Source: a virus (lineage: Duplodnaviria > Heunggongvirae > Uroviricota > Caudoviricetes). Taken from it: a stretch of DNA of 43,124 nt. The position numbers are program-made. The first letter of the stretch is position 1; every line of letters begins with the position of its first letter. The stretch covers positions 1 to 43,124 of IMG/VR virus record IMGVR_UViG_2531839664_000026. The stretch is one strand, 5' to 3'. Positions 36,001 to 39,000 of the stretch are shown here, one piece after another.

Positions 36001-39000
36001 TGGAATTTGTTCCAGTCTTTCAATACGACTCAGCGTCGCTGGATTGACCTGAACGCCCGCAGCAACATGCTGCAAAGTAAATCCGTGCGCCTTACGCACA
36101 TTCCGTAATGGTGATTGCATATGACCTCCACATATTGCGTGATGAGCATATTATTTCACGCAAATATTTTGCGCAAGTTGATTTGCTTAATGCGCAATAA
36201 AGAAATGTAATAAACGCATGAACATAGGAAATCGAGTCAGACAACTTCGCCAGGCGAAGAACATGAAAATCGCCGATCTCGCTGAAGCAATAGGAGTGGA
36301 TGCGGCGAATATCTCACGCCTGGAAACAGGTAAGCAGAAACAATTCACTGAACAAGCCCTGAGTAATATTGCCAGGAGCTTAGGTGTTGATATTGCTGAT
36401 CTCTTTACCTCAGACTTCAAAAGTAATACTGTATGTAAAAACAGTATTAGTGAGGATGTTGCGCAGGTGAAGGATGTATTCCGTATTGAAATGCTGGATG
36501 TCAGTGCCAGTGCGGGAAATGGCCTTATCCAGGGCGGTGATGTCATTGATGTGATTCATGCCATTGAATACAGAACTGATAATGCTGTATCGATGTTTGG
36601 CGGACGACCAGCCAATCACATTAAAGTTATCAACGTTCGTGGGGACAGTATGTGTCCAACCATTGAGCCAGGAGATCTCATCTTCGTTGATGTCAGTATC
36701 AATCAGTTTGATGGAGATGGTATCTATGTATTTGGTTTTGATGATAAAATTTATGTCAAACGACTACAAATGATACCTGACAAACTACTGGTGATTTCTG
36801 ATAACCAGATTTACCGTGAATGGGGAATTACCAGCGAAAATGAACACCGGTTTATGGTCTTTGGAAAGGTCTTAATCAGCCAGTCACAAACCCTTAAGCG
36901 ACACAATTAACCCTTACCTCCTCATCAATTAGCCACCCGAAGGTGGCTTTTCATTACCCATAAAATTGCACATCTCGCAATAAAAAGACTTGCATGATAC
37001 GCAACTTCATTTTATCTTTCTTTCCAGACCAACAAACAAGGTACTAACAAAATTTGGTTGTAACACGGCGTATGGCACATGTGTCGTTAGCGGTCTGGGG
37101 ACGTTAAAGGGGACAATCCACTCCTTGCTCGGGCAAACAAACCAGGTAGCCGGAATGTGCAAGTCAATGATGATGCTGATAAGACGCCTAACCAGCGTGG
37201 CGATCCGGTTTGACGCCTGGGAAGAGACCAGGGTGCAACGATGAGGGCATTTATGGAGCCGCGACAAAGTGTGGTGCCGTAACTGGCTAAGTGCTCTCAG
37301 CGTTGTGGTAATCCGCGAAATGGCGCGGCGGTAAGTATGGCGGGGTTACTCTTTCCCCGTTGAGGACACCGGATTGTCAGGTTGACCATACGCCTGAGTG
37401 ACAACCCCACCACAACAGCCACTGCTTTGGCGGTACCAGTTTGTACACTTTCTTCCGGCTGGTACCGCTCTTTTTACAAAACAGAGAAGAGCATCACCGG
37501 ACGACGGGCTCATAACCCAATCCACCCGGGCGGATGCCACCGCAGGTGTTCTTCTCTGTTTTGTGGAGAAACCAACCGACCTTGCAGGGTCGATATGATG
37601 AGGAGCAGTGCAGGAAGAAATGGCTAACGAATTTCGTGATCTGCTTGTTGAGAAATTCAAAGACAGCAAAGTAGAAACCTTTATTGGTACTTTTACCGCC
37701 TGATTTCCTTACTGCAAATGCCCCTGCGGGGGCATTTATGGAAACATAATTGACTCAATAATCGCCTGATGGCGAGGGTTTTCTTTAACCAAAATTCTGC
37801 GCGGTGCAGCGCATATACGTGGAGAACAAAATGTCATTTATTAAAACTTTTTCCGGGAAGCATTTTTATTATGACAAGATAAATAAAGACGACATCGTGA
37901 TTAACGATATCGCGGTTTCCCTTTCAAATATCTGTCGCTTTGCAGGACATCTTTCACACTTCTACAGTGTCGCCCAGCATGCAGTGCTTTGCAGCCAACT
38001 GGTGCCGCAGGAATTTGCTTTTGAAGCGTTAATGCATGATGCAACAGAAACGTATTGCCAGGACATCCCCGCACCACTGAAACGACTTCTTCCTGACTAT
38101 AAACGGATGGAAGAAAAAATAGACGCCGTAATCCGTGAGAAATACGGGTTACCTCCTGTTATGAGCACGCCAGTGAAATATGCCGATCTCATTATGCTGG
38201 CAACCGAACGCCGCGATCTCGGACTTGATGATGGCTCTTTCTGGCCTGTATTGGAAGGTATCCCGGCAACAGAGATGTTCAAAGTTATTCCACTGTCTCC
38301 AGGTCATGCCTACGGGATGTTTATGGAACGTTTTAACGAGTTATCGGAGTTACGCAAATGCGCATGAATGTTTTCGAAATGGAAGGGTTTCTTCGCGGGA
38401 AATGTGTACCGCGAGATCTGAAAGTGAACGAAACAAATGCTGAGTACCTAGTACGTAAATTCGACGCGCTTGAAGCTAAATGTGCGGCACTGGAAAACAA
38501 AATAATACCAGTGTCAGCTGAATTGCCACCTGCAAATGAAAGTGTTCTGTTATTTGATGCTAACGGAGAAGGCTGGCTGATTGGCTGGCGTTCTCTCTGG
38601 TACACCTGGGGACAAAAGGAAACCGGAGAATGGCAGTGGACATTTCAGGTCGGGGATCTTGAAAACGTCAATATCACTCACTGGGCAGTAATACCAAAGG
38701 CACCGGAGGCAGGGGCATAATGACCACATTTACCGACAAAGAACTGATTAAAGAAATCAAAGAGCGCATAGGCAGTCTGGATGTGCGAGACAATATTGAG
38801 CGCCGTGCTTATGAAATTGCTTTGGTATCGCTGGAAGCAGAACCGGTGGCATGGCTGCATTCAGACAATGGCTTAGGTATTCCGGCAATAACACGGAGTA
38901 AAAACATTGCTGACAGTTGGTTATCAAAGGGCTGGTATGTTCAGCCGCTATATATAGCCAAGCCAGTGCCGATGGTGCCAGATGTTCGTCCGTCTTTAAA

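Follow-up and report, generated by a model that had tools for sequence, protein, structure and literature searches.

Is the immunity of this prophage set by a lambda-like switch, with operators of a single class on both sides of the repressor gene, and which promoters would those operators control? The window, i.e., the whole stretch of 43,124 nucleotides that was analysed (IMGVR_UViG_2531839664_000026), contains one region to which the question applies. Judging from sequence comparisons, the region at 35896-37045 very probably functions as the immunity switch of a prophage that is lambdoid and of the mEp460/SfII/PhiR40 type, with four operators flanking cI. The operator reading is supported by the presence of the sites, where they are placed, how often they occur and how well they are conserved, as well as by the domains of the encoded proteins, the boundaries of the module and the conservation of the promoters; from these observations we infer which protein binds which site, the order of affinities, the cooperativity of binding, the transcription starts and what becomes of the pL transcript.

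The cI gene (36218..36910, plus strand), annotated as such in related phages, encodes a repressor of 230 amino acids with an N-terminal Cro/C1-type HTH domain (HTH_26/HTH_31/HTH_3) and a C-terminal Peptidase_S24 domain (Pfam, 6.5e-19), and resembles 434-type HTH and UmuD' chains. Ala99-Gly100, Ser144 and Lys181 are present, corresponding to a putative cleavage site and the Ser/Lys dyad of the LexA/S24 autopeptidases. Divergently transcribed across a gap of 97 bp is the first gene of the pR operon, a cro-like gene of 86 codons (35860..36120, minus strand; Pfam HTH_3, E 5.8e-10) that has GGAGG 4 nt upstream of its ATG and is annotated as Cro in PhiR40_1, SfII and mEp460. The second gene of the operon (35316..35867, minus strand; Pfam Phage_CP76, 1.2e-14) belongs to the ymfL or CII(CP76) family and is annotated as YmfL or cII in relatives. 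An RNA-based immunity-type element of the C4/isrK kind is also present in the pR operon, and therefore cI and its operators may not be the sole determinant of immunity; sRNA-17 (RS218) was mapped by means of the supplementary alignment of the paper that describes it.

Operators and predicted promoters around cI

Exact matches to TTGC-N7-GCAA number five in the 43-kb window (at 25175, 34517, 36183, 36966 and 36990), compared with 1.66 +/- 1.09 expected from shuffled sequences, one in 100 of which reached five. Three of the five lie around cI within approximately 158-160 bp of regulatory DNA; at the background rate, approximately 158 bp would hold 0.006 exact matches, and the probability of three or more is about 4e-8. 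The motif does not recur at equal density elsewhere, as only two exact matches are found in the remaining 42 kb or so. When the window was scored with a symmetrised matrix of 46 family sites, the top four scores in 43 kb belonged to the sites at 36135, 36183, 36966 and 36990 (16.7-20.9 bits), and the next score was 13.2 bits. Because the pattern itself was used to choose the sites behind the matrix and the site tables, part of the half-site conservation in the tables is circular; a count of half-sites based on alignments is independent of the pattern. Matches with one mismatch are not enriched window-wide (27 observed, 29.6 expected), and therefore the site at 36135 is supported by its position and conservation, not by the count. 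The exact match at 25175 is inside a tRNA gene. The one at 34517, which falls within the Rha orf, was treated as chance: it also fits TTGC-N6-CGCAA on the minus strand, yet scores only 9.7 bits. The operators form one class of 15-bp dyads, TTGC-N6-C-GCA(A/T), which both CI and Cro most probably recognise.

Between cro and cI, where the preliminary description had reported at least two sites, there is one exact match (36183..36197) and a second site (36135..36149) that departs from the pattern by one mismatch, though its GCAT half is invariant in all relatives. The latter site, OR1 (TTGCGTGATGAGCAT; TTGC-N7-GCAT, 16.7 bits, ranked fourth in the window), is proximal to pR and is predicted to overlap the start region of pR and the final 2 bp of its -10 hexamer. 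The predicted pR promoter (36148..36176, minus strand) reads into cro and consists of -35 TTGCGC (36176-36171), a 17-bp spacer and -10 TAATAT (36153-36148); its hexamers and spacing were kept in all ten loci tested despite divergent spacer sequences. The exact match, an OR3-like operator proximal to pRM (TTGCTTAATGCGCAA; 20.0 bits), overlaps the -35 hexamer of the predicted pRM promoter (36183..36211, plus strand; -35 TTGCTT at 36183-36188, 17-bp spacer, -10 TGTAAT at 36206-36211), which reads into cI. The arrangement TTGCxx-17-TGTAAT followed by 6 nt (7 nt in one case) and ATG was found in ten of ten loci tested. There is no Shine-Dalgarno sequence upstream of the cI ATG, and the position of this codon 6 nt past the pRM -10 leads to the prediction that the cI mRNA is leaderless.

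The two full sites of OR have their centres 48 bp apart. Between them, an 8-bp palindrome (TTGCGCAA, 36169-36176) is conserved within an invariant core (TTGCGCAAGT, 36169..36178) that consists of two abutting operator half-sites and contains the pR -35. The core is unchanged in all 25 distinct OR variants, those beside the 66-75% identical repressor homologues included, and its conservation extends past the pR -35 hexamer; in two loci (L007 and L010) the 15-mer that ends in the GCAA of the core fits the operator pattern with one mismatch. The core may be the nucleus of a weak OR2, a candidate third site. When 15-mers starting at 36150-36182 in the window were scanned with the matrix, none exceeded 2 bits, and the 15-mers at 36149, 36162 and 36169 were rejected as a third OR site because each has only one good half. 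Since the window has no OR2-like site above background, there is no support for an OR2 that activates pRM as in lambda. Another sequence in this interval, TCACGCAA at 36156-36163, makes up an inverted repeat of 29 bp together with 36135-36142, as well as an everted dyad (CGCAA-N5-TTGCG) that resembles a PurR box; it was set aside as a conserved site because it is lost in the 66-75% identical homologues.

Beyond cI is an intrinsic terminator (36931..36954, plus strand) with a GC-rich stem of 7 bp followed by TTTTCATT (-11.8 kcal/mol, z -4.2); the SfII and Ayreon records also annotate a terminator at the equivalent position. The two sites that had been described just past this terminator are there, 18 and 42 bp after the stem (36931-36948), and both match the pattern exactly. 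The distal site, OL2 (TTGCACATCTCGCAA, 36966..36980; 18.4 bits), is immediately upstream of the -35 hexamer of the predicted pL promoter (36990..37018, plus strand; -35 TTGCAT at 36990-36995, 17-bp spacer, -10 TATCTT at 37013-37018, start near 37025), and the promoter-proximal site, OL1 (TTGCATGATACGCAA, 36990..37004; 20.9 bits, the maximum of the window), covers the same hexamer and part of the spacer. As the pL hexamers and their spacing recur in relatives from SfII, Shigella, Citrobacter, Buttiauxella and Trabulsiella with different spacer sequences, the expectation that the sites would locate pL is borne out to the extent of a predicted promoter. A consensus promoter scan missed pR, pRM and pL because each -35 fits the consensus at just three of six positions; the scan's own weak candidate, TCCACA-16-TATTAT (36127-36154, plus strand), was rejected because it implies a 57-nt leader without a ribosome-binding site.

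The conservation of the sites was followed in 91 related loci, among which OR occurs in 25 distinct variants and OL in 58, beside cI homologues with as little as 66% identity. In these loci, and equally when the window, PhiR40_1 and SfII are aligned together, the half-sites are fixed while spacers, linkers and flanks drift. The TTGC and GCAT halves of OR1 are invariant and its spacer is variable among the 25 OR variants; the halves of the site at 36183 are likewise invariant, with differences among relatives in the central three bases; and the OL half-sites are nearly invariant, with one exception, whereas the OL spacers and the linker between OL2 and OL1 vary, indels included, leaving the centres 22-24 bp apart (24 bp in the window). 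The site class, OR1 included, is kept at equivalent positions beside the 66-97% identical cI homologues of Citrobacter, Klebsiella, Buttiauxella and Trabulsiella. Fixed halves and free spacers in both sets of variants agree with the earlier proposal that one operator class is present on both sides of cI.

If the motif matches were chance products of AT-rich promoter DNA and TTGxxx -35 hexamers, and not protein-binding sites, one would expect what is in fact seen at three of the four sites, where a predicted -35 begins or lies within the site (TTGCTT and TTGCAT; pR -35 TTGCGC) and the left half might be kept for RNA polymerase alone; the lack of window-wide enrichment of one-mismatch matches would also be expected. 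The GCAA and GCAT right halves and the whole of the distal OL2 are outside any promoter hexamer, however, and are equally invariant; three exact matches in approximately 158 bp are hard to obtain by chance at the probability given above, and the phage Ayreon, discussed below, replaces the motif at both loci along with cI and cro. Chance is therefore a very improbable explanation. A more serious contender, which we consider quite possible although we do not favour it, accepts the operators as real and assigns them a logic other than that of lambda, with CI as a simple negative autoregulator, Cro and CI partitioning the sites differently, and neither cooperative binding at OR1-OR2 nor activation of pRM. 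It would account for the lack of an OR2 above 2 bits and for the 48 bp between the OR centres, compared with 22-24 bp at OL, and the 933W repressor provides a precedent (PMC3317979). Against it, the conservation of the TTGCGCAAGT core past the pR -35 and the 15-mers of L007 and L010, one mismatch away from an operator, have the look of a weak cooperative OR2.

As a lambda-type switch, the region is proposed to work as follows. With OR1 at 36135 occupied, transcription of cro, ymfL, the replication genes and the late genes would be shut off; with the site at 36183 filled, whether by CI in excess or by Cro, expression of cI would decrease. The cI gene would be expressed from pRM as a leaderless mRNA, and the TTGCGCAAGT core may nucleate a weak third OR site. 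The pRM -35 is covered by the OR site with the best match, and autoregulation would be negative, not positive, if CI fills that site first. As OL1 covers the pL -35, CI bound at OL is proposed to silence leftward early transcription too. Self-cleavage of CI at Ala99-Gly100, stimulated by RecA, would lead to induction of the prophage.

Exchange and distribution of the immunity module

Sequence identity between the window and phage Ayreon extends up to 35895 (95.6%) and resumes from 37046 (97.4%), with unrelated sequence in between. Ayreon has a different cro and cI, palindromes of the TGTAC-N7-GTACA type both between these genes and past the cI terminator, and, at the position of pL, a separate promoter accompanied by palindromes of its own. 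The cdtI phage and Stx2c phages show the same pattern as Ayreon (54% coverage), and mEp390 has its own repeats at its pL. Since the flanks are shared with Ayreon while cro, cI and the palindrome class are replaced, 35896..37045 may be delimited as an exchangeable module of approximately 1.15 kb that comprises most of cro, OR, cI, the terminator, OL and pL. A unit exchanged in this way would set the specificity of immunity, and the replacement in Ayreon of cro and cI together with the palindrome class at both loci argues for the preliminary description on this point.

The DNA of the module is 97% identical to that of mEp460 and PhiR40_1 and 90.7% identical to that of SfII (90-98% across mEp460, SfII, PhiR40_1 and Stx2a_WGPS2), and the CI protein is 97-100% identical in about 80 viral contigs. 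With a near-identical CI and operators common to both, the window appears to belong to the mEp460/SfII immunity group. A prophage of E. coli O121 RM8352 matches the window with 100% identity over the block. Of 5426 complete E. coli genomes, 1040 (approximately one in five) contain the module, which is also present in Shigella serotype-converting phages and some Stx2-converting phages. The records of these relatives have the genes annotated, plus the terminator in SfII, but no operators or promoters, and no paper on the operators of this repressor or module was found in the literature. The operator consensus, TTGC-N6-CGCA(A/T), and the boundaries of the module could be used to predict homoimmunity and heteroimmunity from sequence alone; the consensus also marks pR, pRM and pL for studies of induction, and the repressor with its operators could serve as an orthogonal part for synthetic circuits.

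The leader downstream of pL

Conceptually, an ordinary lambda-style switch of a very common type of E. coli prophage adds nothing to the lambda paradigm; the less ordinary trait is that pL is predicted to drive a long, structured, non-coding leader in place of an N gene. The leader (37025..37619, plus strand; approximately 600 nt) has a minimum free energy of -232 kcal/mol (z -4.7). No convincing orf, N gene or nutL was found in the first 600 nt or so after pL, for which relatives annotate short hypothetical orfs only; over 36900-37850, no Rfam family matched at E<=1 except for a spurious miRNA match, and ARAGORN found no tRNA or tmRNA. The leader is 97-99% identical in phages of other immunity types (Ayreon, the cdtI phage and Stx2c phages). 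It contains a strong intrinsic terminator (37429..37476, plus strand; -21.2 kcal/mol, z -5.2), a 13-bp stem followed by UCUUUUU that the terminator scan missed because the loop exceeds the length allowed by the scan, and a second terminator-like structure (37475..37565, plus strand; -45.5 kcal/mol, z -6.8), a long hairpin ending in UUUUG, the inner part of which the scan flagged as terminator-like. As the sequence downstream of pL contains two or more strong terminator hairpins in the leader and no N gene, the leftward early genes must depend on antitermination of some kind for their expression.

At the 5' end of the leader is a conserved RNA-like module of approximately 180 nt, element A (37058..37240, plus strand; nhmmer 3.4e-54), that also occurs upstream of ban in P1 and P7, upstream of tRNA-Arg in epsilon15-like phages, and in the heteroimmune phage mEp390, approximately 42 nt past the predicted start of pL. 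A model with 31 base pairs is 98.6% paired, and six of the pairs are changed on both sides. Element A is absent from Rfam and no paper on it was found; searches of the literature on RNA antiterminators and on termination-based immunity in SfV yielded nothing relevant. Tentatively, and with more doubt than confidence, element A may be proposed as a new, widely exchanged cis-acting leader RNA, e.g., a processive antiterminator resembling put or a module for processing or stabilisation. If so, it would explain leftward early gene expression in the phages of this group that lack N.

Alternatively, pL might drive a non-coding RNA under the control of CI, approximately 450 nt long and composed of elements A and B, with its end at the 37429-37476 terminator; the genes further to the right would then be expressed from elsewhere. 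The first 600 nt fold well and contain no convincing orf, the terminator of -21 kcal/mol is approximately 405-450 nt from the predicted start, and in epsilon15-like podophages element A and the tRNA form a small unit closed by terminators, all of which fit such an RNA. The leader of relatives, on the other hand, precedes yfdP, yfdQ, an HD hydrolase gene, DUF551 genes and xis in the same orientation with no other obvious promoter, and element A of P7 is approximately 90 nt before ban within a known operon; the discrete non-coding RNA is thus rather unlikely. The prophage of the window does not have yfdP-yfdQ downstream of the leader.

Comparison with known switches

HK022 is, like the present phage, a lambdoid phage with no N gene directly after pL, and has structured promoter-proximal RNA ahead of terminators. 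Element A is approximately 180 nt, whereas put of HK022 is approximately 70 nt, and a blastn comparison of the leader with HK022 from 21.0 to 33.0 kb, which includes the PL and PR regions, detected no similarity. Element A was rejected as an HK022 put-type antiterminator, having no blastn similarity to putL or putR; the paper on HK022 put mentions no put relatives.

With regard to its operators, the region may also be compared with that of the Shiga-toxin phage 933W, in which OR comprises three sites and OL two. The 933W repressor has five natural, rotationally symmetric sites of 15 bp; its binding to adjacent sites is reportedly not cooperative, and its order of affinities unusual (PMC3317979). 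Symmetric 15-bp operators, fewer than six in number (five in 933W, four clear ones here), are shared by the two, both of which are lambdoid prophages found in pathogenic E. coli. They differ in operator sequence and in repressor, and 933W has been characterised biochemically, whereas the present system is known from its sequence.

The lambda-like geometry that the preliminary description had ascribed to the region, with cI between OR and OL, holds for the presence of the same class of sites on both sides of the gene, overlapping pR, pRM and pL; it does not extend to the number of OR sites, which is two and not three, or to an N gene after pL. The sites here are 15 bp in length and unrelated in sequence to the 17-bp sites of lambda; there are two full sites each at OR and OL compared with three in lambda, and none where the CI of lambda activates pRM; the Cro protein is of the HTH_3 (XRE) type; and neither an N gene nor nutL follows pL. 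Because there is no rexAB between cI and OL, the distance from OR to OL is approximately 0.8 kb. As in lambda, cI and cro are divergent, the operators between them overlap pR and pRM, and operators of the same class beyond cI overlap a pL that is co-directional with cI; the CI protein combines an HTH domain with a self-cleaving domain of the LexA type, the cI mRNA made from pRM is expected to lack a leader, and the whole forms an exchangeable block.

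Predicted operators and promoters around cI

The window carries a lambdoid prophage, and positions 35860-37060 are 100% identical to a prophage in E. coli O121 str. RM8352. This block was found in 1040 of 5426 complete E. coli genomes, with matches split into two identity bands (~95-99% and ~90-91%), and in phages PhiR40_1/PhiR55_1 and mEp460 (97%), several Stx2-converting phages (96-97%) and Shigella phage SfII (90.7%), whose records label its genes cI, cro, and YmfL or cII. The cro gene (35860-36120, minus strand) encodes 86 aa with an HTH_3 domain; cI (36218-36910, plus strand) encodes 230 aa with Cro/C1-type HTH and Peptidase_S24 domains and the residues Ala99-Gly100, Ser144 (in GDSM) and Lys181, and is followed by a clean intrinsic terminator (36931-36948, -11.8 kcal/mol). 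The module is known from public phage records and its genes are annotated there; no description of its operators or promoters was found in the searchable literature.

The preliminary description placed TTGC-N7-GCAA sites at least twice in the cro/cI gap (OR) and twice past the cI terminator (OL). Exact matches number five in 43 kb, against 1.66 expected, and three of them (36183, 36966 and 36990) fall within ~158 bp of regulatory DNA (Poisson P ~4 × 10⁻⁸ at the background rate); therefore the motif does not occur at similar density elsewhere in the window. Both post-terminator sites, OL2 (36966) and OL1 (36990), are exact, but the cro/cI gap holds one exact site (36183) and reaches two only if the one-mismatch site OR1 (36135-36149, TTGCGTGATGAGCAT) is counted. 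One-mismatch matches are not enriched in the whole window (27 versus 29.6 expected), so OR1 requires support from elsewhere. Its GCAT half is invariant in all relatives, and a scoring matrix derived from the family's own sites gives as the four top matches of the window 36990 (20.9 bits), 36183 (20.0), 36966 (18.4) and 36135 (16.7), the fifth scoring 13.2; the same class of site flanks cI on both sides, as had been proposed by analogy with lambda. Of the other two exact matches, that at 25175 is a chance match in one of two tRNA genes of the late-regulatory region (25144-25373, minus strand), and that at 34517-34531, alone within the Rha ORF 1.6 kb from OR, is probably one as well; its minus strand also reads TTGC-N6-CGCAA, yet it scores just 9.7 bits.

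Conservation was assessed in 91 loci encoding the same CI or its relatives, which yielded 25 distinct OR and 58 distinct OL sequences. In motif-blind alignments, TTGC, GCA(A/T), the C before GCAA, a central TTGCGCAAGT block and a TGTAAT hexamer are invariant or nearly so, while the six to seven central bases of each site, the flanks and the OL1-OL2 linker vary, the linker with indels that set the centre spacing at 22-24 bp. Loci of Citrobacter amalonaticus, Klebsiella spallanzanii, Buttiauxella, Trabulsiella and Pseudescherichia, whose CI homologues have 66-75% identity, retain TTGC-N7-GCAT and TTGC-N7-GCAA at both OR positions in diverged surrounding DNA, and most likewise retain the two post-terminator sites.

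Three promoters are predicted, as hexamer-17-hexamer units conserved despite diverged spacers: pR (-35 TTGCGC 36176-36171, 17 bp, -10 TAATAT 36153-36148, minus strand), pRM (-35 TTGCTT 36183-36188, 17 bp, -10 TGTAAT 36206-36211, plus strand) and pL (-35 TTGCAT 36990-36995, 17 bp, -10 TATCTT 37013-37018, plus strand). OR1 spans the predicted start of pR and reaches the edge of the -10; the pRM -35 lies under the 36183 site and the pL -35 under OL1, with OL2 just upstream, in line with the anticipated location of pL. The cI ATG lies 6 nt past the pRM -10 and has no Shine-Dalgarno sequence; cI mRNA from pRM would be leaderless, as is the lambda pRM mRNA. CI bound at OR1 and at OL1/OL2 would switch off both early operons, Cro or surplus CI on the 36183 site would lower cI, and the prophage would be induced through RecA-stimulated self-cleavage of CI.

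Module exchange and a possible second immunity determinant

Phage Ayreon matches the window at 95.6% identity up to 35895 and at 97.4% from 37046 on; between these points its cro and cI are unrelated to those of the window, which delimits the exchangeable immunity module as 35896-37045, OL and pL included. The cdtI phage and Stx2c phages have the same 54% coverage pattern. At its cro/cI gap and just past its cI terminator, Ayreon carries palindromes of another class (ATGTAC-N7-rTACAT and TTGTACC-N5-GGTACAA), indicating that operator sequences travel with the repressor allele and supporting their proposed tie to immunity specificity. Heteroimmune modules found at this genomic position come with palindromic repeats of their own at OR as well as OL, of the TGTAC-N7-GTACA class in Ayreon (locus L001, 2313-2402 and 3116-3160) and GTAAG-N5-CCTAC repeats at pL in mEp390 (locus L218, 1020-1090). 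These are ready predicted operator sets for two further immunity groups.

Immunity determinants may extend beyond cI and its operators, because the pR operon also contains a C4-type antisense RNA (34771-34858, minus strand, 82.8 bits) and an isrK-like RNA (34883-34959, minus strand, 56.6 bits) in tandem, between ymfL and the Rha-domain gene and upstream of the latter. The arrangement resembles those of P1 immI and Gifsy-1 IsrK, and by that analogy the tandem would be a second, RNA-based module for immunity or antirepressor control. A 382-aa ORF (34171-35319, minus strand), whose PhiR40_1 counterpart is a 1152-bp 'Rha protein', crosses both RNA genes. Where it matches Pfam Phage_ASH (aa 117-212), it overlaps the C4 RNA, which may reflect translation of an RNA gene; the true Rha start is probably near the MATISTL motif, ~175 aa ahead of the stop. 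Elsewhere in the window (24116-24367), an AgvB anti-GcvB sRNA (plus strand, 96.5 bits) is the immediate neighbour of STnc100 (minus strand, 148 bits); both are regulatory RNAs carried by prophages, of a type described in EHEC.

The pL leader and element A

The part of the region that could reward more work is the non-coding start of the pL transcript, a leader of ~600 nt (37025-37619, fold z = -4.7) in which neither a convincing ORF nor a matching Rfam family was found. It contains an intrinsic terminator (37429-37476, -21 kcal/mol) and a hairpin with terminal U's (37475-37565, -45 kcal/mol), and more terminator-like hairpins precede the first downstream gene. pL serves no N gene, and with these terminators in its path leftward early expression seems to require antitermination.

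The leader is a three-part mosaic. Copies of its second part, element B (37302-37424, plus strand), with 85-89% identity are present in Stx2a 'PPompW' phages, PhiR42_1 and even an Actinobacillus pleuropneumoniae phage; phiV10 has a tRNA gene at the equivalent position. A published sRNA of E. coli K1 RS218, the ArcA-modulated sRNA-17, begins within the leader terminator hairpin on the opposite strand (~37468, minus strand) and has only its first ~65 nt in common with the window (37400-37472, minus strand), which is one 'degenerate sRNA-17' type (PMC7719688). Compared with PhiR40_1 and Ayreon, the prophage lacks ~1.1 kb carrying yfdP and yfdQ at 37604-37703; the junction is a 28-bp stretch (37604-37631) matching either end of the absent segment, and a 27-codon fusion ORF (37620-37703) is left.

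The first part, element A (37058-37240, plus strand), is a conserved RNA-like sequence of ~180 nt that occurs in unrelated contexts at 77-83% identity: between tRNA-Ile and ban in P1/P7, in a non-coding gap ahead of tRNA-Arg in phiV10 and other epsilon15-like phages, and ~42 nt downstream of the predicted pL start in mEp390, whose repressor and operators are unrelated to those of the window. Copies are located in loci L092 (3007-3195), L093 (2495-2677), L218 (1134-1296), L216, L217, L219 and L220. The element is unannotated in nearly all records and absent from Rfam, and its sequence had no match in literature searched by sequence. Its core is nearly invariant, and its long stem retains the base while the apical domain is swapped wholesale between subfamilies. 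In a 31-pair consensus, built from the same sequences on which it was scored and with few independent events, 98.6% of cells are paired versus 21-37% with partners slid, and six pairs have changed on both sides. Invariant G-U pairs point to an RNA off the plus strand. The evidence that element A is a structured plus-strand RNA is modest.

Comparison with lambda and other phages

The leader and element A showed no similarity to HK022 put. The immunity module resembles the lambda immunity region in its working and is the same kind of system, but two lambda-specific features do not apply. Lambda pL opens its operon with N/nutL, whereas pL of the window runs into no N gene. Lambda OR has three sites, whereas the window has two full OR sites with centres 48 bp apart, and the position from which lambda CI activates pRM is site-free; with the family matrix, nothing between the two full sites exceeds 2 bits. 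The invariant TTGCGCAAGT between them comprises the pR -35 along with two half-sites that abut each other, and in two homologues a 15-mer with this core at its end differs from the operator at a single position. The stretch might serve as a weak OR2 that fills cooperatively. The nearest studied analogue may be 933W, with five natural 15-bp sites and unusual switch logic (PMC3317979).
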